Assembly (NCBI GenBank): GCA_965646165.1
Contig: CBFFYP010000040.1
Span: 1-41,002 of the forward strand
DNA from: an uncultured Lachnospiraceae bacterium
Lineage (GTDB): Bacteria; Bacillota; Clostridia; Lachnospirales; Lachnospiraceae
Length of the DNA: 41,002 nt
Direction of reading: 5' to 3'
How positions within the stretch are numbered: position 1 is the stretch's first letter; every line of letters starts with the position of its first letter. Positions 1-33,915 of the stretch are shown one piece after another. The notes beneath the pieces were generated by a model, which worked only from the letters and a program-made list of their open reading frames with translations, made no database searches and was not told where the DNA came from. The position numbers and the translations under genes are program-made.

Positions 1-612
1 CGGGCTAAACACGCCCCTTTTTTTTCACACCCTGCATAGAAGCAGGATGTGAAAAAAATCTTAGGTTTTCGAGCAGAAGTCCAAGAACTTCTAACTTTTT
101 TCCAAAGTCACTGCAGGCTGCCCACCGTTTTCGAATCTGGCTGTTTCTTGACTCCGAAACAAAAAAGAATCACATTCTAACTTTTCTAAAAATCTGTTTC
201 TGTCCTGTAATAAAATATAATTTCTATCGCTATTCAATTAGCAGTCAGAGGCGGTTTGCTCCTGCCCTTTGCCTGCGACTTCGGAGAACGGTTAGAAAGT
301 CTTGGGTTTCTGTGGAATTACCTAGAATTTTTTGCATATCCTGCTTCTATGCAGGGTATGCAAAAAAAGGGGCGTGTTTAGCCCGGACGATAGGGAAGCG
401 GATGTTTTATGGTTGGTAATATCCTTCCTTACACCTGTTTCGTTTTGGTTGTTATGAGGGCGAATTGCGCCCCGGTTCGTCTGGTTGGATGAACCGAAAT
501 CAGAAGCCTTAGACTTTCTTACCGTTTGGAGCGGAGTAGGCAAAGGGCAGGAACAAACCGCCTCTGGCGTCCGGTGAAAGCCAGTATCCTATCTCCAAAA
601 GCCTAATGAAAG
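1..612. repeat. Family-1 composite structured repeat, copy A (may continue upstream of window start). Nested inverted repeats, two T-run/hairpin/A-run modules in opposite orientation, ends with ...CTGGCGTCCGGTG
   Basis: Blocks 1-60 and 328-386 are inverted copies of each other (CGGGCTAAACACGCCCC + T-run + hairpin + A-run). Blocks 246-300 and 515-580 are inverted copies (CAGAGGCGGTTTGCTCCTGCCCTTTGCC). The whole region recurs rearranged at 20437-21000 and 36003-36500. Confidence 0.8.
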
Positions 613-4442: not shown

Positions 4443-6236
4443 ATGGATGAAGCAATGAAATATCCAGAGCATATGGTATTTGGTTTGGATATAGGGACAA
4501 GAAGTGTTGTAGGGACAGTAGGCTATTTGGAACGAAAGGTTTTTAAAGTGGCTGCTCAGTGTGTAAGATATCATGACACCCGGGCGATGATTGACGGACA
4601 GATTCATGATATTACAAAGGTCGGACAGGTGATCTATCAGGTAAAGTCCGAATTGGAACGGAATTTGGGACGGACGTTGAGTGAGGTATGTATTGCGGCG
4701 GCAGGGCGTGTATTAAAGACAGTAACAATTAAGGCAGAGCAGGAGTTAGAAGAAGAACGGATTGTCAATCAGGAGGATATCTATTCTTTGGATATGCTTG
4801 GTGTGGAGAAGGCTCATGCACAGCTTGCCGAGGAAGAAACGGAGAATATTCGTTTTTATTGTGTGGGTTATACGGTAATTCAGTATTATATGAATGACTA
4901 TGTAATGAACAATTTGGAAGGGCATAAGGCTCGAAAGATAGCAGCAAATGTGCTGGCTACTTTTTTGCCGGAGGATGTGGTGGACAGCTTGTATGCTGCT
5001 GTAAGGGAAGCTAATCTTCAGGTGGCAAGTCTTACTTTAGAGCCGATTGCTGCGATTCAGCTTGCGATTCCAGAGCAGTTTCGTTTGCTGAATATTGCTT
5101 TGGTAGATATTGGAGCGGGAACTTCCGATATTTGTATTACAAAGGATGGAAGCGTGGTTGCTTATGGAATGATTTCTTTGGCAGGTGATGAGTTGACCGA
5201 GTGTTTGGCAAAACAGTATTTAACGGATTTTGATACGGCAGAGAAGATTAAGATTTCATCCGGTAAAAATAAGCCTATTTTTTATAAGGATATTATGGGG
5301 CTGATTCATAAGCTGACTTCAGAAGAAGTGCTGGAAGTGCTAAAGCCGGTGTTGGATCATATGGCAGAAAGTGTTTCGGATAAGATTAAGGAATTAAATG
5401 GCGGAAAGGCAGTCAGTGCCATTTTTGTTGTAGGCGGTGGCGGAAAGATTACCGGATTTACGGCTCTTTTGGCGGATAAGATTATGATTCCTAGGGAGCG
5501 GGTGGCTCTTCGTGGAGAAGAAGTAATGGGAAATGTAGAGTTTTTGATACAGGATGCAAAAAAGGATTCTTTGCTGGTTACGCCGATTGGGATTTGTTTG
5601 AATTTTTATAATGAGCGAAATAGTTTTATCTTTGTTTATGTTAATAATGAGAGAATTAAACTGTATGATAATGATAAACTGACGGTTATGGATGCGGCTT
5701 TGCAGGCAGATATTTCCAATGCTTCTCTCTTTCCTCAAAGGGGACGGGATTTGAATTTTAAGGTAAACGGAAAGCCTCGGGTGGTGCGGGGAAGTGTCGG
5801 AGAAGGGGCGGTTATTTTGTTGGAAAAAACAGAAGCCAGTCTTCAGACACCGATTCGGCAAAATGATCGAATTTTTATAAAAGAGTCTACGGTAGGACCA
5901 GATGCGGTTTGTTCGGTTGGGAAACTGCCGGAATATGAGGGGAGTATTTCTTTTGTGGTAAATGAAAAGAAAGTGACTTGTCCGAAGTTTGCTCAGGTAA
6001 ATGGGAAGTTGGAATCTGGGTATTATGAGATACAGGAAAATGATGAGATTTTGTTTTTGAATTATTATACAGTGGAACAGGTCATGACTTTTTTGGATAT
6101 TGATACAGAGATGCTGAAAATTTATGTGAATAATCGGCTGGCGGAACTGACAGAAAGGGTTTATGAGAATTTTTCTCTTCGGTTTGAGAAGCTGACGGGA
6201 ACGTATGCGGATTTGGTGGAAGAAGGAGGGGTGTAG
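4443..6236 (+). CDS. Actin-fold (ASKHA) ATPase of the FtsA/PilM/EutJ type with roughly 230-aa C-terminal extension of unknown function
   Basis: Phosphate-1 FGLDIGTRSV, phosphate-2 LVDIGAGTSDICI, adenosine motif VVGGGGKITG. 597 aa is longer than canonical FtsA. Confidence 0.6.
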   Translation: MDEAMKYPEHMVFGLDIGTRSVVGTVGYLERKVFKVAAQCVRYHDTRAMIDGQIHDITKVGQVIYQVKSELERNLGRTLSEVCIAAAGRVLKTVTIKAEQELEEERIVNQEDIYSLDMLGVEKAHAQLAEEETENIRFYCVGYTVIQYYMNDYVMNNLEGHKARKIAANVLATFLPEDVVDSLYAAVREANLQVASLTLEPIAAIQLAIPEQFRLLNIALVDIGAGTSDICITKDGSVVAYGMISLAGDELTECLAKQYLTDFDTAEKIKISSGKNKPIFYKDIMGLIHKLTSEEVLEVLKPVLDHMAESVSDKIKELNGGKAVSAIFVVGGGGKITGFTALLADKIMIPRERVALRGEEVMGNVEFLIQDAKKDSLLVTPIGICLNFYNERNSFIFVYVNNERIKLYDNDKLTVMDAALQADISNASLFPQRGRDLNFKVNGKPRVVRGSVGEGAVILLEKTEASLQTPIRQNDRIFIKESTVGPDAVCSVGKLPEYEGSISFVVNEKKVTCPKFAQVNGKLESGYYEIQENDEILFLNYYTVEQVMTFLDIDTEMLKIYVNNRLAELTERVYENFSLRFEKLTGTYADLVEEGGV

Positions 6237-6254: not shown

Positions 6255-6322
6255 GGGGACGCCAGATTTCGGAACGGTTGGGTACTGCTGTTCCGAAATC
6301 TGGCTGTTTCTTGGCTTCTGAA
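6255..6322. repeat. Family-1 fragment / hairpin (GGGGGACGCCAGATTTCGGAACGG...CTGTTCCGAAATCTGGCTGTTTCTTG)
   Basis: 14-bp stem. The 3' arm matches block 130-160 of copy A (TTCGAATCTGGCTGTTTCTTG). Sits 20 nt after the stop of the preceding gene. Confidence 0.6.
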
Positions 6323-6423
6323 GAGAAAGTCTTATCGAAATTTTTCCGGTAGATGAAGTGATATAGGATGCAGCATTTGTAATGATTTTATGGGAAAGGA
6401 TTAGAATTAGGAGGAAGAAAATT

Positions 6424-16484: not shown

Positions 16485-16512
16485 TTGTTTTTTGTTATAA
16501 AATAGTTATAAT
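16485..16512 (+). promoter_or_regulatory. Sigma-A-type promoter for thi operon (-35 TTGTTT 16485-16490, -10 TATAAT 16507-16512)
   Basis: 16-nt spacer. Predicted TSS just before the riboswitch. Confidence 0.55.
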
Positions 16513-16519
16513 GTAAGAT

Positions 16520-16612
16520 ATGGGGAGCTTATTAGAATAGGCTGAGAGTAAGCATGTGAGGCTTTTACCCTTAAAACCTGATTTGGATAATGCCAACGTA
16601 GGGACATAGTTT
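16520..16612 (+). promoter_or_regulatory. TPP (THI-box) riboswitch
   Basis: GGGGAGC...CTGAGAG...ACCCTTAAAACCTGATTTGGATAATGCCAACGTAGGGA matches the THI element consensus. Lies upstream of thiM-thiE-thiD-thiC. Confidence 0.88.
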
Positions 16613-16623
16613 GCAAAGATAGG

Positions 16624-16661
16624 ATGCAGATATGCTTTTTTGGCGTATCTGCATTTTTTGT
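16624..16661 (+). terminator. Riboswitch expression-platform intrinsic terminator (GCAGATA...TATCTGC + TTTTTT)
   Basis: 7-bp stem followed by a T-run between the THI box and thiM. Confidence 0.6.
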
Positions 16662-16670
16662 GTGTAATTA

Positions 16671-16706
16671 GGAAGGACGCCAGAAAATGGGGTACTGTTG
16701 TGTATG
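16671..16706. repeat. Family-1 fragment (GGAAGGACGCCAGAAAATGGGGTACTGTTG)
   Basis: Matches 6255-6290 (GACGCCAGA...GGGTACTGCTG). Confidence 0.4.
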
Positions 16707-16766: not shown

Positions 16767-17588
16767 ATGTTGAAAGAATGTTTAGAGGCTGTGGGAGAAA
16801 AGAAACCGTTGATTCATAATATTACAAATTATGTAACGGTAAATGATGTGGCAAATGTGCTGCTTGCTTGTAAAGCAAGTCCGATTATGGCAGATGATCC
16901 GCAGGAGGCAGCGGAGATTACGGAAATTTGCAATGGGTTAAATATTAATATTGGGACGCTGAATCAGCATACGATTCCTGCTATGTTTGCGGCAGGAAGA
17001 CGGGCTGCTGAGCTGGGGCATTGTATTTTGCTTGATCCGGTGGGGGCGGGAGCAAGCTCGCTTCGTACAAATACAGCATTGAAGTTGATGCAGGAGATTC
17101 CGTTTGATTGTATTCGGGGAAATAGTTCAGAGATTAAGACATTGGCATTGGGAAGTAAGACAACGCAGGGAGTGGATGCAAATCAGGCGGATACGGTAAC
17201 GAAAGAAAATTTGGATGAGATGGTTTTGTTTTTAAAGGCGTTTGCAAAGGAGCAAAAGAGTATCATTGTTTGTACAGGGGCGATTGATTTGGTTTCGGAT
17301 GGGAATCGTTGTTATGTAATTTATAACGGGCGTCCGCAGATGGGACGGATTACCGGAACGGGATGTCAGCTTTCTGGGTTAATTACTGCTTATTTGGCGG
17401 CAAATCCAGAAAGAAAGTTAGATGCTTGTGCAGCAGCGGTATGTCTGATGGGGCTTGCCGGAGAATTGGCATGGAAGCGAATGGAAGCAAGAGATGGAAA
17501 TATTTCCTATCGAAATCGAATTATTGATGAGATTGGGGTAATTAGCGGAGAGGAATTAGAGAAAGGGGCAAATTATGAAGTGCAATGA
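16767..17588 (+). CDS. thiM: Hydroxyethylthiazole kinase
   Basis: PLIHNITNYVTVNDVANVLLACKASPIMA signature. Strong RBS. Confidence 0.92.
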   Translation: MLKECLEAVGEKKPLIHNITNYVTVNDVANVLLACKASPIMADDPQEAAEITEICNGLNINIGTLNQHTIPAMFAAGRRAAELGHCILLDPVGAGASSLRTNTALKLMQEIPFDCIRGNSSEIKTLALGSKTTQGVDANQADTVTKENLDEMVLFLKAFAKEQKSIIVCTGAIDLVSDGNRCYVIYNGRPQMGRITGTGCQLSGLITAYLAANPERKLDACAAAVCLMGLAGELAWKRMEARDGNISYRNRIIDEIGVISGEELEKGANYEVQ

Positions 17589-18243
17589 TTTATTGTTGTA
17601 TGCCGTAACGGATCGAAGTTGGTTAAATGGAAAGACGCTGGCTTGGCAGGTGGAAGAGGCGCTAAAGGGAGGAATTACGATACTGCAGCTTCGGGAAAAA
17701 AGTCTTATGGAGGCTCAGGAGGATTTTTTTAAAGGGGGGATTTATCAAGAGGCTTTAGAGATTCAGAGATTGTGCAGACAGTATAAAGTCCCTTTTTTGA
17801 TTAATGATCAAGTGGAGATTGCCTGTCGGATGGATGCAGACGGGGTGCATGTAGGGCAGAGTGATATGGCAGCTTCTTTGGTGAGAGAGAAGATTGGGAA
17901 AGAAAAGATTTTGGGTGTATCAGTGCAGACGGTGGAGCAGGCGGTTTTGGCAGAGCGGCAGGGAGCGGATTATCTTGGAGTGGGAGCAGTGTTTACTACA
18001 AGATCGAAAGCAGATGCACAGGCAGTTGATAGAGATACTTTGTGCAGGATTTGTCAGGCAGTTTCTGTTCCGGTTGTAGCAATCGGAGGAATTACGGAGG
18101 AAAATATGGGACAGCTTGAAGGGACAGGGATTTGCGGGGTTGCAATGATTCGTGCGATTTTTGCACAAGCGGAGATTGAGCAGGGGGTAAGTCAGCTTTT
18201 ACAAAAGTGTCGGAAACTTTTTAAAAAGGAAAAAGGAATATAA
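17575..18243 (+). CDS. thiE: Thiamine-phosphate synthase
   Basis: ThiE/TMP-TENI fold motifs. Overlaps thiM by 14 nt. Confidence 0.9.
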   Translation: MKCNDLLLYAVTDRSWLNGKTLAWQVEEALKGGITILQLREKSLMEAQEDFFKGGIYQEALEIQRLCRQYKVPFLINDQVEIACRMDADGVHVGQSDMAASLVREKIGKEKILGVSVQTVEQAVLAERQGADYLGVGAVFTTRSKADAQAVDRDTLCRICQAVSVPVVAIGGITEENMGQLEGTGICGVAMIRAIFAQAEIEQGVSQLLQKCRKLFKKEKGI

Positions 18244-18273
18244 AAATCCGAAGGGAGGTTTAAAGTAATTAAA

Positions 18274-19074
18274 ATGGAACGGGAGAAAATAAAAGCAGTT
18301 CTTACAATCGCAGGAAGTGATTGTTCGGGTGGTGCTGGAATTCAGGCGGATTTAAAGACAATGACAATGCATGGAGCTTATGGGATGAGTGTGATTACAG
18401 CACTGACTGCACAAAATACTACAGGGATTTATGGTGTACATACTGTGACGGAGGATTTTTTAAAAAGGCAGATAGATAGTATTTTTACGGATATTGTGCC
18501 GGATGCGGTAAAGATTGGGATGATAGGTTCAAAGTTTTTTATAGATGTAATAGCAGAGCGTCTTTTTTATTATCGGGCAAAGAATATTGTTTTTGATCCA
18601 GTGCTGGCTTCTACTAGTGGGACAGAACTTTTGGATAAAGATGGCAGGAAGGATTTAGAAGAGAAGTTGTTTCCGATGGCAAGACTTGTGACGCCAAATA
18701 GACCAGAGGCGGAGATTTTTTTGGGGAAAAAGATAGAAACAGGAGAGCAAGTCGCAGCGGCAGCGGTTGAAATTGGACAGAGATATGGGTGCAGTGTGCT
18801 TTTGAAAGGAGGACATGGGGCAGGTCAGGCAGATGATTTTCTTTATAAACAGAAAGAGAATCGAAAGATTTGGATTAGCGGGAAGCGATATTTGGTTTCA
18901 AATACACATGGAACGGGGTGTACATTGAGTTCCGCAATAGCGGCAAATTTGGCAAAAGGAAGCAATTTGGAAGAGAGTGTGAGAATGGCAAAAGAATATA
19001 TTAATGGGGCTTTGCAGAATGAAATATATCTGGGAGCTGGAAATGGACCGCTGAATCATATGTGGTGTAAATAG
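18274..19074 (+). CDS. thiD: Hydroxymethylpyrimidine/phosphomethylpyrimidine kinase
   Basis: LTIAGSDCSGGAGIQADLKT ribokinase-like ThiD signature. Confidence 0.92.
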   Translation: MEREKIKAVLTIAGSDCSGGAGIQADLKTMTMHGAYGMSVITALTAQNTTGIYGVHTVTEDFLKRQIDSIFTDIVPDAVKIGMIGSKFFIDVIAERLFYYRAKNIVFDPVLASTSGTELLDKDGRKDLEEKLFPMARLVTPNRPEAEIFLGKKIETGEQVAAAAVEIGQRYGCSVLLKGGHGAGQADDFLYKQKENRKIWISGKRYLVSNTHGTGCTLSSAIAANLAKGSNLEESVRMAKEYINGALQNEIYLGAGNGPLNHMWCK

Positions 19075-19125
19075 AGAGTAAGTGAAGGAGATTATAAAAA
19101 ATAGCAGAGTCAGGAGGAAAAAGGG

Positions 19126-20424
19126 ATGTATACAACGCAAATGGAAGCAGCACGGAAAGGAATCGTAACGGAGCAGTTGAAAATAGTTGCCGAAAAGGAA
19201 AGAATGACAGCAGAAGAGTTAATGCCGCTTGTAGCAGAGGGAAAAGTGGTGATTTGTGCAAATAAAAATCATAGTTGTTTAGAACCAGAGGGAATCGGTT
19301 CGATGCTTCGTACAAAAATCAATGTAAATCTTGGTGTGTCAAGAGATTGTAAAGATTATGATACAGAGATGAAAAAAGTATTGGAAGCGGTTTCTATGGG
19401 GGCACATTCGATTATGGATTTGTCTTCTCATGGAGATACACAGCCGTTTCGAAAAAAATTGACGGCGGAGTGTCCGATTATGATAGGTACGGTTCCGGTT
19501 TATGATGCAGTAATTCATTATCAAAGAGATTTGGCAGAATTAAGTGCAAAAGATTTTTTAGATGTGATTCGGCTTCATGCGGAAAACGGAGTAGATTTTG
19601 TCACTTTGCACTGTGGAATTACCAGAAAAACAATAGAGCAGATTCGAAATCATAAACGAAAGATGAATTTGGTTTCACGGGGAGGTTCTTTGGTTTTTGC
19701 ATGGATGTGCATGACAGGAGAGGAGAATCCGTTTTATCAGTATTATGATGAAATTTTAGAGATTTGCCGGGAATATGATGTAACGATTTCCCTTGGTGAT
19801 GCCTGCCGACCGGGATGCCTTGCGGATGCTTCGGATGTCTGCCAGATAGAAGAATTGGTAAAGTTGGGGGAATTGACAAAACGGGCGTGGGAGAGGGATG
19901 TACAGGTTATGGTAGAAGGACCGGGACATATGCCAATGGATCAGATTGCTGCAAATATGAAAATTCAGCAGACGATTTGTATGGGTGCGCCTTTTTATGT
20001 ATTAGGACCTTTGGTAACGGATATTGCTCCGGGATATGATCATATTACGGCGGCGATAGGCGGAGCGATGGCGGCGGCTTGCGGGGCTTCTTTTCTTTGT
20101 TATGTTACACCGGCAGAACATTTGGCACTGCCAAATTTAGAAGATGTAAAACAGGGAGTGATTGCTTCGAGAATTGCAGCACATGCGGCGGATATTGCAA
20201 AAGGGATTCGAGGTGCTAGAGAACAGGACGATGCTATGGCAAAGGCAAGGAGGGAATTAGATTGGGAAAAACAGTGGGAATGTGCGATTGATCCGGAAAC
20301 GGCAAAGAGGATTCGGGCAGAACGAAAGCCGGAGCAGGAAGATACTTGTTCGATGTGCGGAAAATTTTGTGCTGTGCGGAGTATGAACAAGGCTTTGGCA
20401 GGGGAATATATTGATATTTTATAG
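19126..20424 (+). CDS. thiC: Phosphomethylpyrimidine synthase
   Basis: 432 aa, ThiC family, C-terminal CSMCGKFCA Fe-S motif. Confidence 0.93.
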
Positions 20425-20436
20425 GATGAGGGGGTG

Positions 20437-21000
20437 CTTTCACCGGACGCCAGAGGCGGTTTGCTCCTGTCCTTTGCCTGCTCCGCTCCAAACGGTAAGA
20501 AAGTCTAGGGCTTCTGATTTCGGTTCATCCAACCGGACGAACCGGGGCGCAATTCGCCCTCATTTCAGCCGAAACATAATTGGTGTAAGGAAGAATTTTT
20601 CCAGCTACAAAACAGCCTCTTCTCTATTCTCCGGGCTAAACACGCCCCTTTTTTTGCATACCCTGCATGGAAGCAGGATATGCAAAAAATTCTAAGTTTT
20701 CGAACAGAAGCCCAAAACTTTCTAACCGTTCTCCGAAGTCGCTGGCAAAGGACAGGAGCAAACCGCCTCTCGCTGTTGGCTGAATAACAGTAGAAGTTAT
20801 ATTTTATTACAGAGCAAGTTTTCCGTAAAGTTTAGACATCATTCTTTTTTGTTTCGGAGTCAAGAAACAGTCAGATTCGAAAACAGTGGGCAGCCTGCAG
20901 TGACTTTGGAAAAAAGTTAGAACTTCTTGCTTTTTGGAAACTGGAACAGCAGGCTGCTCACTGTTTTCGAATTTGGCGTCCTCTGACGTCCTCTGGTGTT
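20437..21000. repeat. Family-1 composite structured repeat, copy B (largely the reverse complement of copy A blocks, one hairpin module only)
   Basis: 20440-20510 is the reverse complement of A 515-580. 20510-20625 is the reverse complement of A 387-520. 20632-20690 is the T-run/hairpin/A-run module. 20690-20990 is the reverse complement of A 60-300. Ends ...TTTGGCGTCCTCTGACGTCCTC. Confidence 0.8.
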
Positions 21001-22553: not shown

Positions 22554-23029
22554 TGATAATGGAAATCAGAAGAGCAGAAGAAAGAGATTTGGAAGGAATT
22601 AATCGTTTGTTAATGCAGGTTTGTTTGGTTCATCATAAAGGCAGACCGGATTTATTCCGATATGGAGCAAAAAAATATACAGATGAACAGTTAAAAGAGA
22701 TTATCCGTGATGCTCAGCGACCAATTTTTGTGGCAGCAGATGAGAATCAGAATATTTTAGGATATGCATTTTGTATCTTTCAGCAGCATAAGAACGATAA
22801 TATTTTAACTGATATTAAAACACTGTATATTGATGATTTATGTGTAGAAGAAAACCAAAGAGGACAGCATATCGGCAGCAGTCTATATCAGGCAGTCTAT
22901 GCATTTGCAAAACAAAATTACTGTTATAATGTAACTTTAAATGTATGGAGTTTAAATGAATCGGCAATAAAATTTTATGAAGCGTGTGGTCTAAAGCCAC
23001 AAAAAATAGGAATGGAAGTAATTCTATAG
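22553..23029 (+). CDS. GNAT family N-acetyltransferase
   Basis: 158 aa. Q-R-G-Q-H-I-G acetyl-CoA-binding motif. Start overlaps the previous stop. Confidence 0.75.
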   Translation: MIMEIRRAEERDLEGINRLLMQVCLVHHKGRPDLFRYGAKKYTDEQLKEIIRDAQRPIFVAADENQNILGYAFCIFQQHKNDNILTDIKTLYIDDLCVEENQRGQHIGSSLYQAVYAFAKQNYCYNVTLNVWSLNESAIKFYEACGLKPQKIGMEVIL

Positions 23030-23040
23030 AAGAGGACGCT

Positions 23041-23174
23041 AAAATCCGAAGGAAGGTCTGCTCCGGGTCCGCTTGCGCTTAGCATTTCCTCGTAGCGGAC
23101 ACATAAGGCGCTAAAACACAGCGCCTAAGTGCCGACGGGAAATGATGACCCTGTGCAGACCTTCCTTCGGATTT
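23041..23174 (+). repeat. Family-2 structured repeat, copy 1 (20-bp perfect terminal inverted repeat AAAATCCGAAGGAAGGTCTG / CAGACCTTCCTTCGGATTTT, two internal hairpins)
   Basis: Internal stems GTCCGCT/AGCGGAC and TTAGGCGCT/AGCGCCTAA. Preceded by GAGGACGC. Sits 11 nt after the GNAT stop. Confidence 0.8.
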
Positions 23175-23251
23175 TGGCTGTGTATTTCTGGCAGAAGAAC
23201 AGAATAATTATAAATGTTCAGGAATTAAGTAAAACTTATATAGATAGTGAT

Positions 23252-23632
23252 ATGGAAAGTATTGCAAAATATGTTGGTTTAACTGCTGATAAAGGGAATT
23301 TTAGTAAGAATAAAAATATGTTGTCTGTATTAAAAGACATAGTTTGGGAATGTATGAAACGTTGGAGCAAACTTATAAGGAGGTATTTGATTAAGATGGA
23401 GAGATGGACGATTACAGATGAAATAAGAGAATATTTACCATATACTTGTGCATATGCTGAGTTGTATGGTAAAAAGGTGTCAGAGAATGTATATGAAGTG
23501 GATTTGATTAGTACGTTTGAAACGCCTTCAAGGTATGAACATCAACCAGAATTGTTGTATGAGGAATGTATTAGGCTAGGAAAGAAATGGACGGATATTG
23601 TTTCAAGAGTAAAAAAGGGTATGATATTATAA
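23252..23632 (+). CDS. Hypothetical protein (AT-rich, no recognisable motifs)
   Basis: The ORF track gives 23129-23632, but its 5' part lies inside the repeat. First plausible start is ATG 23252. Confidence 0.3.
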   Translation: MESIAKYVGLTADKGNFSKNKNMLSVLKDIVWECMKRWSKLIRRYLIKMERWTITDEIREYLPYTCAYAELYGKKVSENVYEVDLISTFETPSRYEHQPELLYEECIRLGKKWTDIVSRVKKGMIL

Positions 23633-23861: not shown

Positions 23862-24028
23862 ATTCTGGCTGGTAGAAACAGCTGAAATGGGAAGAAAGGT
23901 CTATGCAGGGTCATCATTTCCCGTCGGCACTTAGGTGCTGTATTTTAGCACCTTAGTGTCCGCTACGAGGAAATGCTAAGCGAGAGCGGACCCGGAATAG
24001 ACCTTTCTTCCCATTTCAGCGTCCCCCT
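23862..24028 (-). repeat. Family-2 structured repeat, copy 2 (inverted relative to copy 1; overlaps the last codons and stop of the GH2 gene)
   Basis: 15-bp IR GGGAAGAAAGGTCTA/TAGACCTTTCTTCCC. Internal hairpin TTAGGTGCT/AGCACCTAA carries a compensatory pair relative to copy 1. GGGGGACGC terminus encodes ...RGGR-stop of the GH2 protein. Confidence 0.75.
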
Positions 24029-25779
24029 CGAATTTTTTGATTCCATTCAATCAGGGTTTGAGCATCGATTTTTAAAATTTTTCTGTCATAGGTAAAGATT
24101 CCGTTGATTTCTTCTTCTACGTCGGAAAGCTGTGTATAAACGGAAGCGGAAAGTCCGTTTTGAAATGCTGGAAAAATCAGTGTTTCCATTAATTTATGAT
24201 AGCCGTTTGTCAAAGATTTTCGGTTAGGAAAGGTGCGGTAGCCAAATGTTTTTGAGGAATAGCTATGTTTTGGTACATGCCAAGCGTAGCCGCCAAACTC
24301 AGTCAGAGCAAGTGCACGTCTTTCCGGGTGGAGAATCAGTGAGAAAAAGTAGTAGTGAATACTTTTGATATCTCCTCCGCCTTGATCGAACCAGCCGCTG
24401 GCATGATCGATCAGTCGTTCTGGATCCAGACTGCGAATCAGTTCTGCTGCAAAGAGTGCCCGAAATTGTCCCCAGCCTTCGTTAAATGGAACCCAGCATA
24501 TAATGCAGGGGTGGGAAGAGAGAAAGCGGATGCTGGAAACCATTTCTTTTGCCCATTCTTTTCTGCCTTCTTTATTTTGACGTGAAAGCAGTGCATGAGG
24601 GTGATCGAAAACTCTTTTGCCGGAATAGTTAAAAAGGGTTGCCATATAAGTAACAAACCAGTGATGATAATGACTTCCGCCGTTTACCATATCCTGCCAG
24701 ACTAAAATACCAAGCCGATCACAGGTATAATACCAGCGTTCGGATTCGATTTTCAGATGTTTTCGTATCATATTAAAGCCTAGTTTTTTTACAGAAAGGA
24801 TATCAAAGATCATGGCTTCTTCGCATGGCGGGGTGTAAAGACCGTCCGGCCAGTATCCCTGATCGAGGATTCCGACTTGAGGATAAGGACGGTTGTTGAG
24901 AAAAATTCGCCGAATCCCATTAGAATCCGTTTGTATATCACATTTTCGAAGAGCAAAGTAACTAGATACTTGATCGGTGGCAGTTGTAATGGTTACTTGA
25001 TATAGATAGGGATGTTCCGGGCTCCATGGATAAAATTCTTTAATTGGAATCAGGAAGCTTTGATTGCTGGTAATGGAGTAAGAACATGTGCCGGACGGAA
25101 GAAGCAGCTTGATGGAAGCAGGACAAGTTTCTTTAGTAGAAATCTTGACAGTTATTTCTTTTTTATCATAGTTGGGAGTGAATTTTATATAGCGTATAAA
25201 ATTATCCGGTACAATTTCCATCCAAACCGTCTGCCAGATACCGCTTTGTGCCGTATAAAACATACCACTGTTATGCAGTTTTTGTTTTCCACGGCTGTGA
25301 TAGGAGGTATCGCTGGGATCGGTAACTCGAACAAAGAGATCACAGATCTCTTGAGATTGGAAGGTGTCTTGAACTGCTTCTGTAATATTTATAGAAAAAG
25401 GGAGATAACCTCCGCTGTGTGATCCGACTTCTTTTTGATTGATATAAACGGTGCAGGATTGATCGACTGCACCAAAATGCAGATAGAGTCGTTCGGTAGG
25501 TTGGAGTTGTAAAAAAGAAATCGTTCTGTGATACCAAAGAAATTCATTTGGTTTTAATTGGCGTTTTACTCCTGATAATTGGGATTCAGGAGAAAATGGA
25601 ACTAAAATTTTTCCCTTATAGGCGGAGGGAAATTTGGCGTTTCGGCTGATGGTATAGTCCCAATAGCCATTTAAATTGATATAAGAGGAGCGAACCATAG
25701 TAGGACGGGGGTATTCCTGCCAGACATTTGTTTCTGTAATATGTTTGGTCCAGTAGGTTTCTAGCGTATGTTTTTTCAT
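24016..25779 (-). CDS. Glycoside hydrolase family 2 enzyme (beta-glucuronidase/beta-galactosidase-like), cytoplasmic
   Basis: N-terminal sugar-binding LNGYWDY...HFGAVDQSCTVYINQKEVGSHSGGYLPF aligns with E. coli GusA LDGLWAF...RFDAVTHYGKVWVNNQEVMEHQGGYTPF. NE catalytic region WVPFNEGWG. Confidence 0.85.
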   Translation of the reverse strand: MKKHTLETYWTKHITETNVWQEYPRPTMVRSSYINLNGYWDYTISRNAKFPSAYKGKILVPFSPESQLSGVKRQLKPNEFLWYHRTISFLQLQPTERLYLHFGAVDQSCTVYINQKEVGSHSGGYLPFSINITEAVQDTFQSQEICDLFVRVTDPSDTSYHSRGKQKLHNSGMFYTAQSGIWQTVWMEIVPDNFIRYIKFTPNYDKKEITVKISTKETCPASIKLLLPSGTCSYSITSNQSFLIPIKEFYPWSPEHPYLYQVTITTATDQVSSYFALRKCDIQTDSNGIRRIFLNNRPYPQVGILDQGYWPDGLYTPPCEEAMIFDILSVKKLGFNMIRKHLKIESERWYYTCDRLGILVWQDMVNGGSHYHHWFVTYMATLFNYSGKRVFDHPHALLSRQNKEGRKEWAKEMVSSIRFLSSHPCIICWVPFNEGWGQFRALFAAELIRSLDPERLIDHASGWFDQGGGDIKSIHYYFFSLILHPERRALALTEFGGYAWHVPKHSYSSKTFGYRTFPNRKSLTNGYHKLMETLIFPAFQNGLSASVYTQLSDVEEEINGIFTYDRKILKIDAQTLIEWNQKIRGGR

Positions 25780-28818: not shown

Positions 28819-30300
28819 GTGTCAATATTACATATAGTATGTTTTGAAGGAGGTATTGTTTTGTTGGAATTATTAAAACCGGAACGAGTATTTTATTATT
28901 TTGAAGAAATTTCAAAAATCCCGCATGGTTCGGGAAATACCAAAGCGATTAGTGATTATTGTGTTGCATTTGCAAAAGAGCATGGACTTTCTTATATACA
29001 GGATAGTTGGAATAATATTATTTTGATGAAAGAGGCTTCAAAAGGAAGAGAGCAGGATGATGGAATTATTCTGCAGGGGCATTTGGATATGGTAACAGTA
29101 AAGGATGAGGATTGTGATATTGATTTTTCGAAGGATGCTCTGCGTTTAAAAATGGATGGAGATGAAATTTATGCGGAGGGTACAAGTCTTGGAGGAGATG
29201 ACGGAATTGCGGTTGCTTATGCACTGGCAGTTTTAGAAGATGACAGCCTTTCTCATCCGCATTTGGAAGTGGTGCTGACGGTGGATGAAGAGATTGGACT
29301 TTTAGGAGCAGCGGGCATTGATTTATCGATGCTAAAGGGACAGTATCTGATTAATTTGGATTCCGAAGAAGAGGGTGTTTTTTTAACAAGTTGTGCAGGA
29401 GGTTTAAGAGGGGATATGGTTATTCCGGTTCGTTATCTGGAAGAAGAGGGGATTTTATATCAGATAAAGGTGACGGGACTAACAGGAGGACATTCTGGTT
29501 CTGAGATTGACAAGGAGCGTGCTAATGCGATAAAATTAACGGGACGTTTGCTTTTGGAGTTAGAGCAAAAGATTTCCTATGGAATTTGTAAACTGCAGGG
29601 CGGAGAAAAAGATAATGCGATTGCGGCGGAGTGTGCGTTTTCTTTGTTGGTAAAGGCAGAAGATGCTGGGCAGTTTGAGCAGCTTTTACAGGAGCGGATG
29701 GCGGTTTATCAGGCAGAGTATGCATGTTCTGATCCGAATCTTAGGATAGAGTGGAGAAAAAGGGATAGTAGGATAGAAAAGAGGATTGACTTGTCTTGTC
29801 AGAAGAATGTTGTTTATCTGCTGGCAAATCTGCCGAATGGGGTGCAGAATTGGAGCAGAATCATTCCGGGATTGGTGGAAACTTCTTTAAATCTTGGGAT
29901 TGTATTGCTGGATCAGGAGAAACTTACGGTTACGGCTTCAGTTCGAAGCAGTGTAGGAAGCCGAAAAGAGGCACTGAGCAATCAGCTTCGTTCGATGACA
30001 GAGTTTTTAGGGGGAGAATATACGACACGTGGAGAGTATCCGGCTTGGGAGTATCGGGCGGATTCAAAACTGCGGGAAACGGCAGTAGAGATTTATAGAG
30101 AAAAGTATAAAAAAGAACCGTTGGTACAGGCAATTCATGCTGGGTTGGAGTGTGGGATTCTTTTAGAGAAATGCCCAAGGCTGGATGCGATTTCTTTTGG
30201 ACCAGATATAAAGGATATTCATACTACACGGGAGCGGTTGAGTATTTCTTCTGTGGCACGGGTTTGGGAGTATTTGGTGGAGGTACTGGAAAAATTATGA
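28819..30300 (+). CDS. pepD: Aminoacyl-histidine dipeptidase (M20 family, PepD-like)
   Basis: GHLDMV, DDG, multiple M20 motifs. True start may be TTG 28861 after GGAGG (28848-28852). Confidence 0.85.
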   Translation: MSILHIVCFEGGIVLLELLKPERVFYYFEEISKIPHGSGNTKAISDYCVAFAKEHGLSYIQDSWNNIILMKEASKGREQDDGIILQGHLDMVTVKDEDCDIDFSKDALRLKMDGDEIYAEGTSLGGDDGIAVAYALAVLEDDSLSHPHLEVVLTVDEEIGLLGAAGIDLSMLKGQYLINLDSEEEGVFLTSCAGGLRGDMVIPVRYLEEEGILYQIKVTGLTGGHSGSEIDKERANAIKLTGRLLLELEQKISYGICKLQGGEKDNAIAAECAFSLLVKAEDAGQFEQLLQERMAVYQAEYACSDPNLRIEWRKRDSRIEKRIDLSCQKNVVYLLANLPNGVQNWSRIIPGLVETSLNLGIVLLDQEKLTVTASVRSSVGSRKEALSNQLRSMTEFLGGEYTTRGEYPAWEYRADSKLRETAVEIYREKYKKEPLVQAIHAGLECGILLEKCPRLDAISFGPDIKDIHTTRERLSISSVARVWEYLVEVLEKL

Positions 30301-30302
30301 TA

Positions 30303-30470
30303 AGGGAAACGCTGAAATCCAAAAGGGGGTCTGCTCCGGGCTCGCTTGCGCTTAGCATTTCCTATTTTCATAGCGGACACATAAGGCACTAAAATACAGC
30401 AACACAGTGCTTAAGTGCCGACGGGAAATGATGACCCTGCATAGAACCCCATTTGGCTTTCGGCTGTGTG
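30303..30470 (+). repeat. Family-2 structured repeat, copy 3
   Basis: Begins GGGAAACGCTGAAATCC 3 nt after the pepD stop. Outer arms GGGGGTCTGC / GCATAGAACCCC covary with copy 1 (AAGG/CCTT to GGGG/CCCC). Confidence 0.75.
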
Positions 30471-30647
30471 TACCTGATTGACATAATTTTTTAGCACCTG
30501 ATTTGTGCAGATTTTTGATTGTGTGTTGTTAGATTAGGGAAAGTTTTTTATATTTGGAGTATTTTGATTTAGAGGACGGGAGTTATGATGTTGTGATAGC
30601 TGAGAGAAAATGAAGTGGATTTATGATGAGAAGAAAAAGGAGACAGT

Positions 30648-31727: not shown

Positions 31728-31785
31728 AAGAAGATTCTAGAAATGACATAGCTTAGGCTATGTCATTTTTGGTATACTCTTTTGT

Positions 31786-33698: not shown

Positions 33699-33744
33699 GG
33701 GAAACTCCTTTTTGTAGTTGTTGTTAGTGATTGATTTTGTTGAA

Positions 33745-33915
33745 GAAGGGACGCCAAAGCTCCAAGGAAGGTCTGTTCCGGGCTCGCTTGTGCTTAGCAT
33801 TTCTTATTTCCTCATAGCGGACACTAAGGCGCTAAAACACAGCAACACAACGTCTAAGTGCCGAGATGACCCTGCGCAGACCTTCCTTGGGGCTTTGGCT
33901 GTGTATTTCGAGCGA
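33745..33915 (+). repeat. Family-2 structured repeat, copy 4
   Basis: GGGACGCCAAAGCTCCAAGGAAGGTCTG ... CAGACCTTCCTTGGGGCTTTGG. Outer stem retains pairing via T-G wobble after a double substitution relative to copy 1. Confidence 0.75.

Follow-up and report, generated by a model that had tools for sequence, protein, structure and literature searches.

What kind of element occupies the three large non-coding regions that recur within a 41,002-nucleotide stretch of DNA from an uncultured Lachnospiraceae bacterium (GenBank contig CBFFYP010000040.1, positions 1 to 41,002, hereafter the window)? A preliminary description, made from the letters alone, had presented them as a roughly 500-bp mosaic repeat and had placed them with MITE/BIME-like elements or with a structured RNA family. 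Based on the comparison of the three regions with one another and with related loci, we argue that they probably represent a non-coding palindromic repeat of the REP/BIME kind that is lineage-specific, present in high copy number and much larger in scale. Repeats of the REP type are known above all from Proteobacteria, as hairpins of 20-40 bp. The genomic grammar of REPs would now be present in an uncultured gut Firmicute, in tagged palindromes ten times larger. In layout the repeats are like the REP/BIME repeats of E. coli, and their conserved fold is of an RNA-like type.

Layout of the repeats in the window

BLAST within the window bore out the presence of the repeat at the three places described. 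Positions 82-581 (copy A) are the reverse complement of positions 20436-20929 (copy B; 87% over 500 nt) and positions 5-303 that of positions 36009-36309 (copy C; 86%), and positions 271-530 match positions 36196-36457 in direct orientation (78%). All three regions represent a single non-coding element of about 770 bp that consists of two hairpin units of about 335 nt, placed head to head and inverted around an AT-rich spacer of 86-94 nt. As the element thus forms a large inverted repeat, direct and inverted matches lie side by side. We call head the unit end with ...AAGAAACA and tag end the one with GCGTCC. With a profile made from the first six units, the order unit (-), spacer, unit (+) was recovered in each region and recurrently in related loci. 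The blocks are therefore collinear, and the shuffling between copies that had been reported is only apparent: it results from the orientation of the copies, the window edge, one internal deletion (B) and one IS-associated truncation (C). The identity of the blocks, given earlier as 85-95%, actually ranges from 78 to 96%.

All the dimers seen have their heads facing and their tags outwards (A, B and C, three in locus L037, and those in L041, L046, L049 and L055; L-numbers denote the loci fetched for comparison with the window). Units mostly occur as heterodimers, whose partners differ in their outer stems (types S1 and S2), and the spacers of the S1+S2 dimers are homologous at six loci. Copy A corresponds to B or C read on the opposite strand and is cut by the window start, which falls in the most conserved stretch of the element. 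The full copy was found at L002 8755-9524, on one of the contigs of the same organism that were retrieved through the exact PolA protein, and it is preceded there by a tRNA and two ordinary terminators. In copy B, the tag end of the left unit lies about 12 nt past the thiC stop codon (20424), and what remains of the right unit is the outer stem, as a 24-bp hairpin (20875-20898/20949-20972). This is the 24-nt stem quoted in the preliminary description, and variants of it occur at 113-136, 36178-36201 and 36469-36492. The sequence GGGCGCAATTCGCCC occurs exactly three times (458-472, 20545-20559 and 36384-36398), and both it and the quoted stem were absent from every shuffled sequence. The truncated left unit of copy C adjoins an IS5-family element (35043-35937); at the same position, L055 carries an intact unit (5304-5656) with ruvAB upstream. 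The coordinates are collected in Table 1, which includes a second family of units (family 2) and the shortened derivatives treated below.

Table 1. Positions of repeat units and their parts (window coordinates unless a locus is named)
Feature	Position	Strand	Remarks
Copy A, left unit	1-158	-	S2-type outer stem; nhmmer profile columns 2-159; head-proximal 158 nt only
Copy A, left unit, complete version	L002 8755-9093		
Copy A, spacer	159-229		AT-rich; homologous to the spacers of B, C and three other dimers
Copy A, right unit	230-583	+	S1-type, complete
Copy A, right unit, P1	244-279/533-568		
Copy A, right unit, P2	280-312/501-532		
Copy A, right unit, P3	328-367		T6-7, hairpin, A7-8
Copy A, right unit, P4	369-384/458-473		
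Copy A, right unit, variable domain	385-457		
Copy A, right unit, tag	569-575		GCGTCC
Copy B, left unit	20435-20786	-	S1-type, complete
Copy B, spacer	20787-20852		
Copy B, right unit	20853-20990	+	S2-type, internally deleted (without model columns 78-285)
Copy C, left unit	35952-36084	-	S1-type, truncated (model columns 3-143)
Copy C, spacer	36085-36155		
Copy C, right unit	36156-36509	+	S2-type, complete except for a 3-nt loss in P4
Copy C, right unit, P1	36173-36207/36463-36497		
Copy C, right unit, P3	36256-36295		
Copy C, right unit, P4	36297-36309/36384-36399		
Copy C, right unit, tag	36498-36504		
Family 1 mini hairpin	6255-6312	-	Termini GGACGCCAGAT...ATCTGGCTGTTTCTTG; 19 nt past a stop codon
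Isolated tag remnant	10113-10124	-	GGGGGGACGCCAGA; 30 nt past a stop codon
Isolated tag remnant	16672-16683	-	GGACGCCAG; between the TPP riboswitch terminator and the first thiamine gene
Family 2 unit	23026-23193	-	
Family 2 unit	23866-24033	+	
Family 2 unit	30298-30478	-	
Family 2 unit	33741-33913	-	
Family 2, mini version	3716-3790		

Fold of the unit and the strand that folds

A consensus fold was predicted with RNAalifold from an alignment of 28 distinct units. It comprises 88 pairs, and 39 of these show compensatory double changes, so that the covariation for which the preliminary description had proposed a test is strong. With the structure held fixed, standard pairs fill 99.1% of 2424 pair cells, compared with 87.4% in the shuffle control and at most 50% when the partners were slid; for all five pairing measures, none of 500 shuffles reached the real alignment. 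This covariation support matches that of many accepted RNA families.

The outer stem (P1) has a conserved base of 7 bp, GCCAGAT/ATCTGGC, above which about 25 bp are wholly different between the subfamilies (S1, S2a-f and S3) and are still complementary. The second stem (P2) is conserved. P3 consists of a hairpin between runs of T6-7 and A7-8, with an invariant U.G pair between covarying pairs. In the long-range helix P4, GGGGCGUGUUUAGCCC is paired to GGGCGAAUUGCGCCCC, and GC-to-AU and GC-to-UA changes at 147:252 and 148:251 support this helix. The sequence previously described as a conserved small hairpin is indeed conserved, but it does not pair with itself: covariation pairs it over a long range with GGGGCGTGTTTAGCCC, which makes it one arm of this larger helix. 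The domain enclosed by P4 measures about 75 nt, and its identity between copies is only about 63%; the majority-base conservation is 0.98 in the P4 arms versus 0.76 in this domain. A short hairpin lies 3' of P4, and the unpaired 3' tag GCGTCC closes the unit. The cores of the hammerhead and hairpin ribozymes were also considered; they did not fit by eye, and Rfam reports neither.

G.U pairs outnumber A.C pairs by 185:11 overall and by 41:7 in P1 and P2, where the pairing is independent of the strand used for prediction. An excess of this size identifies one strand as the folding strand. All 27 units tested were more stable on the strand 5'-ACAGCC...GGCGTCC-3', with a mean gap between strands of 19 kcal/mol under RNA parameters versus 5.5 kcal/mol under DNA parameters, and the z-score of the folding strand is -14. 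Replication-linked base skew is excluded as the cause because both partners of a dimer show the bias, and deamination of the non-template strand during gene-sense transcription would, by reasoning, bias the pairs in the opposite direction. We conclude that the element is constrained as a single strand of fixed polarity, either RNA or single-stranded DNA.

Such a constraint could be read as that of stand-alone genes for a structured non-coding RNA of 335 nt, with a four-way junction and a cellular function, transcribed from the head outwards (divergently from the spacer in the dimers) and only secondarily present in high copy number. The combination of covarying stems, invariant junctions and loops and an unconstrained internal domain is the pattern of a functional RNA. 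Invariant U.G and tandem G.U pairs with covarying Watson-Crick pairs on either side (115:132, 151:248 and 152:247) point the same way, and so do the z-score and the much larger strand asymmetry obtained with RNA than with DNA energies. However, we found no conserved promoter, of the sigma-70 type in particular, at the unit heads or in the spacers and no terminator after the tag. Furthermore, hundreds of copies would be unprecedented for a bacterial RNA gene, deletions or truncations affect many of the copies, and the RNA would run antisense into the upstream gene. On balance we consider RNA genes of this kind unlikely.

Copies, their genomic setting and a second family

The reading frames across the units shift between copies and are not conserved, and a coding role was rejected for that reason. 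A 10-codon ORF (MQGVKKKGRV) was likewise discarded, as no Shine-Dalgarno sequence was recognized for it by eye and two copies carry frameshifts in it. When the spurious ORFs of the units were used as protein queries, only 40 clusters were matched among 5.8 billion proteins, all of them from NCBI or ENA assemblies and none with a Pfam domain; these matches served to fetch further loci. A scan of Rfam (release 15), at the gathering score and at E<=10, gave no real match on the repeats, in agreement with the preliminary description, which had recognized no known family. The chance matches on the hairpins were to miRNA-precursor models and scored 22-28 bits, where the gathering scores are 85-103. 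No matches came from pattern scans of the JGI metagenomes and of IMG/VR, two for each, or from BLAST searches of plasmids and phages with the units. Genome contigs were also scanned for the GC-rich 18-mer GGGCGAATTGCGCCCCGG, and among the matches listed, those in high-GC genomes were due to chance and only L019 was real. This locus (4700-5021) holds a unit of about 80% identity with a third type of outer stem, about 45 nt past a histidine-kinase-like ORF, in a MAG labelled Erysipelotrichaceae whose contig ends within the unit. The MAG has no other nucleotide similarity to the loci studied here, which indicates that at least two organisms carry the family. The search for further copies that had been suggested at the outset thus yielded many in the same organism as well as one in a second organism. 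The possibility that the variable stems act as guides was examined and rejected, since short BLAST searches with eight stem types against 687 kb of loci returned only remnants of the repeat.

About 14 unselected sites were counted in about 175 kb of non-redundant sequence, that is one per 12-13 kb, which would amount to a few hundred units if the genome is of typical size. Many metagenome contigs end within units, and the repeats break short-read assemblies of the host organism. Gene callers also turn them into spurious small proteins. To the left of the block downstream of copy C, three neighbors were found in different assemblies, namely the IS5-family element, an inverted polA and ruvAB. 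The polA context corresponds to a 36-kb inversion between A and C with its crossover within an S2 unit, and context switches of a like kind were seen in L037, L038 and L039. These contexts may reflect recombination between copies, and they could equally be assembly chimeras, because identical stretches of about 175 nt exceed the k-mers of the assemblers. The repeats may also drive inversions and other rearrangements between strains. At L048 (9588-10409), a single unit follows spoIIIAC, where the spoIIIA operon appears to end, and unrelated genes come next; either the locus was rearranged at the repeat or the assembly is chimeric. A dimer with a spacer of 255 nt lies at L049 10003-10934, in a 2.4-kb rnpA-dnaA intergenic region that is presumably the origin region.

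Copy C adjoins genes for IS5-family and IS630 transposases, and one unit of L041 lies beside a tnpA/tnpB pair of the IS605 type. The repeats might on these grounds be the flanks of insertion sequences or prophages, or else an artefact of assembly. However, most copies lie between housekeeping genes with no transposase nearby; polA, thiC, dnaA, dnaB and ruvB are among the genes that they adjoin. IS ends carry different hairpins, the lack of phage and plasmid matches speaks against an origin from either, and the same loci were found again in independent assemblies from several samples. This explanation, whose IS and prophage variants were among the findings that the preliminary description had named as overturning its view, is largely refuted and we hold it to be very improbable.

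In 9 of 11 single units or minis, 3-45 nt separate the tag end from the adjacent gene's stop codon (a manual tally from the gene tables, the sequences read and the ORF list of the loci). Of the two tags of a dimer, one comes after the upstream stop codon and the other points towards the next gene. The copies are found at operon boundaries, and the earlier statement that all of them sit directly after stop codons is correct for one tag end of a dimer but not for the other, which faces the start of the next gene. With the tag end at the gene stop, an upstream mRNA enters the unit through GGACGCC and carries the less stable strand.

The same position would suit operon-boundary cassettes that terminate or insulate transcription, with head-to-head dimers stopping polymerases from both sides. 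On the gene-sense strand, a GC-rich helix ending in CGCCCC is followed directly by U7-8, which is the complement of an A7-8 run beside GGGGCG that is invariant in the 28 units. The helix forms at the 3' end of a model of the truncated gene-sense RNA (L001 4950-5170), so that a terminator or insulator role is possible. Canonical terminators are rare in the window, the best being 31737-31772, that of the TPP riboswitch, and the family 1 mini hairpin (6261-6304), which was the best terminator-like site of the window scan and the sole piece of family 1 to pass the standard scan; none was found between thiC and the next gene. Nevertheless, selection favors the folding of the other strand, which this role does not explain, and it accounts neither for the long outer stems nor for the T6-7/hairpin/A7-8 arrangement. 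A span of about 100 nt, as in this helix, would be unusual in an intrinsic terminator, copy A comes after two ordinary terminators, and the orientation bias is weaker, only about 2:1, in family 2. A primary role in termination or insulation seems quite unlikely to us.

Family 2 is a second repeat of the window, of about 165 nt, with 16 distinct copies in the loci. Its core is unrelated to that of family 1 and its termini are as in family 1, 5'-ACAGCY...RGCGTCC-3'. The outer stem is again hypervariable and covarying (22 of 54 pairs with more than one Watson-Crick type), and G.U pairs exceed A.C pairs by 74:15 with the same polarity as in family 1. Two inverted copies between 23026 and 24033 have their tags outside and 666 nt between them, with an orphan ORF (23129-23632, 126-167 aa), the sole gene seen to lie between two inverted copies of a repeat. 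The ORF was tested as a candidate for the mobilizing enzyme and turned out to be an orphan without a family: it has only 7 close relatives among 5.8 billion proteins, no match in Pfam, NCBIfam or PHROG and no HUH motif by eye in its translation.

Copies of family 1 decay by internal deletion. We take the mini hairpin of the window to be a deletion product in which only the outer stem is left. Other shortened derivatives were found at L049 15120-15190 and L037 10437-10629, 16195-16262 and 19155-19401, and the deletion junctions of the shortened units differ. L044 lacks a whole hairpin that is present in L041 and retains the flanks of the element itself. Both this difference and the shortened units are long-palindrome deletions and not empty target sites. 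The 13-mer TTAGAACTTCTTG is present once at the junction in the right unit of copy B and twice in copy C (36220 and 36436), a direct repeat that could mark the core as a transposon inserted into an empty hairpin. We judged such an insertion less likely than a deletion, since the junctions of other shortened units are not the same, the 13-mer is a quasi-palindrome found in both arms of every unit and the L049 mini hairpin has the full 3' arm and only part of the 5' arm. At several tag ends, the 10-nt tag motif CTGGCGTCCT was observed in 2-4 tandem copies, forming C-rich, G-poor tracts with a 10-nt period (for example at 20973-21000 of the window and at about 3080-3125 of L039).

Relation to known repeats and possible mode of spread

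The closest parallels are the tagged REPs of Proteobacteria, GTAG- or CGTC-tagged palindromes that measure 20-40 bp and have stems of 5-13 bp and loops of 2-20 nt (Di Nocera et al. 2013, PMC3733652). Their hairpins carry the unpaired tag at the 5' end, with the polarity 5'-CGTC-stem-CCA, and occur mostly as HH dimers, often heterodimers, with the tags outside and conserved spacers of 20-100 bp; they lie within 20 bp of the ends of upstream ORFs, and no dedicated transposase is known for the CGTC class (PMC3733652). The repeats described here are likewise intergenic palindromes in high copy number; one end carries a short conserved tag that stays unpaired, and the subfamilies are set apart by their stem sequences. 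The S1+S2 dimers are tags-outside heterodimers with a conserved spacer, and the copies lie near the 3' ends of upstream ORFs. They differ in size, with units of about 335 nt (about 165 nt in family 2), 88 predicted pairs and a conserved multi-helix core, and in the tag, which reads 5'-GGACGCC-stem (or stem-GGCGTCC-3') and contains CGTC only in the opposite polarity. Moreover, the present host is a Firmicute, whereas the survey of tagged REPs lists no Firmicutes (PMC3733652). Since the grammar is common to both but the size and the sequence and polarity of the tag do not agree, we assign the repeats to the REP/BIME kind and to no named family.

REPINs are mobilized by RAYT transposases (Bertels and Rainey 2011, PMC3116915). 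Going by the outline of REPINs in that account, two inverted hairpin units with their spacer form the repeated entity there as here, single units look like remnants, and a folded single strand is the presumed substrate. By the same outline, the present copies differ in being tenfold larger and diverged, and they do not form a cloud about a master sequence. In the available loci, neither a RAYT gene nor any other HUH gene was seen with units on its flanks.

Bacterial MITEs and the Correia, ERIC, BOX, RUP and bcr1 repeats are non-coding, lie in intergenic regions or 3'-UTRs, and carry terminal inverted repeats that can form long hairpins; in MITEs, the terminal repeats are the conserved part of the element. 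Our repeats resemble them in being non-coding, intergenic and able to form long hairpins, whereas their inverted termini are hypervariable except for 7 bp. No target-site duplication was recognized, as the flanks of units at different loci contain no direct repeat and clean empty sites were not seen, and the available loci yielded no autonomous IS that shares its ends with the units. Accordingly, the original assignment to MITE/BIME-like elements or a structured RNA stands as a class, by virtue of the covariation and the BIME-like layout, but the hallmarks of MITEs were not found. The attC sites of integrons conserve their structure rather than their sequence, have a conserved stem base and function through one folded strand. 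These three traits are shared by the present units, which differ from attC in size and in having a conserved core. By eye, the unit termini contain no GTTRRRY core sites; neither a cassette array nor an intI gene was found nearby, and the copies occur singly between housekeeping genes.

Returning to a large repeat of the REP/BIME kind, which we prefer, the element would act as a folded single strand of fixed polarity (5'-ACAGCC...GGCGTCC-3') and would have spread in this form. The termini and the stem base might constitute a recognition handle for one trans-acting factor, and the sharing of the termini by two unrelated cores does point to a trans-acting partner. A candidate would be a structure-specific nuclease or recombinase, as in the REP/RAYT pair, or an RNA-processing or RNA-binding protein; handle and factor together could be how both families spread and are kept. 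The marking and insulation of operon ends would then be a likely side effect or an adopted role, and the copies may in addition serve as substrates for homologous recombination. Several observations weigh against this reading. No mobilizing enzyme was found, and the nearby transposition genes belong to the IS200/IS605 (tnpA/tnpB, IscB), IS630 and IS5 families. Nor were near-identical paralogues seen in the short-read assemblies, which is weak evidence because such assemblies break at these copies. The folding strand is antisense to the upstream gene, so that a read-through mRNA would carry the less stable strand, and the promoter or terminator of a stand-alone RNA, for which none conserved was found, is missing for this reading too. 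The near-invariant core around an enclosed domain of about 63% identity suggests that selection on each copy in place fits better than neutral selfish decay, or else there may be turnover of an active population hidden from short-read assemblies. We put forward only tentatively, and as rather doubtful, that both the 335-nt and the 165-nt families are functional large structured RNAs or single-stranded DNA elements selected at several hundred sites, with a hypervariable closing stem between invariant termini that a dedicated protein would recognize. They would then be a Firmicute counterpart of the REP/RAYT partnership, with an ornate fold the size of a ribozyme and possibly processed at the GCGUCC tag. 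In any case, a trans-acting partner for the common termini is worth seeking.

Other mobile elements lie close to the repeats. The IS630-family transposase gene (33971-35017, -) directly adjoins the IS5-family element, in which two ORFs (35650-35937 and 35043-35528) make up a split transposase, and these genes are wedged between a family 2 copy and the truncated left unit of copy C. Nothing like the unit termini was noticed alongside them, in a comparison for which the ends of these elements were not delimited. Further along the window, a match to HEARO, the omega RNA of IscB, is cut by the window end (40853-41002); at L057 6147-7418, the HEARO locus runs on into an RRXRR+HNH (IscB) gene. The hairpins at the ends of the IS200/IS605-type elements (the IscB element at the window end and the tnpA/tnpB pair of L041) are unrelated to the units, and the end hairpin of the IscB element, cccatcccctaaagggaatggg, is found again in L041, where it lies at the tnpB end of the IS605-type element. 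Three further features of the window were recorded. A TPP riboswitch and its terminator (16511-16683) precede a thiamine operon (thiM/thiE/thiD/thiC-like, 16767-20424). A gene at 10630-13890 for a 1086-aa protein with LRR and choline-binding repeats contains six tandem repeats of 66 nt (13295-13822) with 63-88% identity to the reference copy. Finally, positions 6382-8922 encode an 846-aa protein with major-vault-protein shoulder and repeat domains (PF11978 and PF17795), which is unusual in a bacterium.
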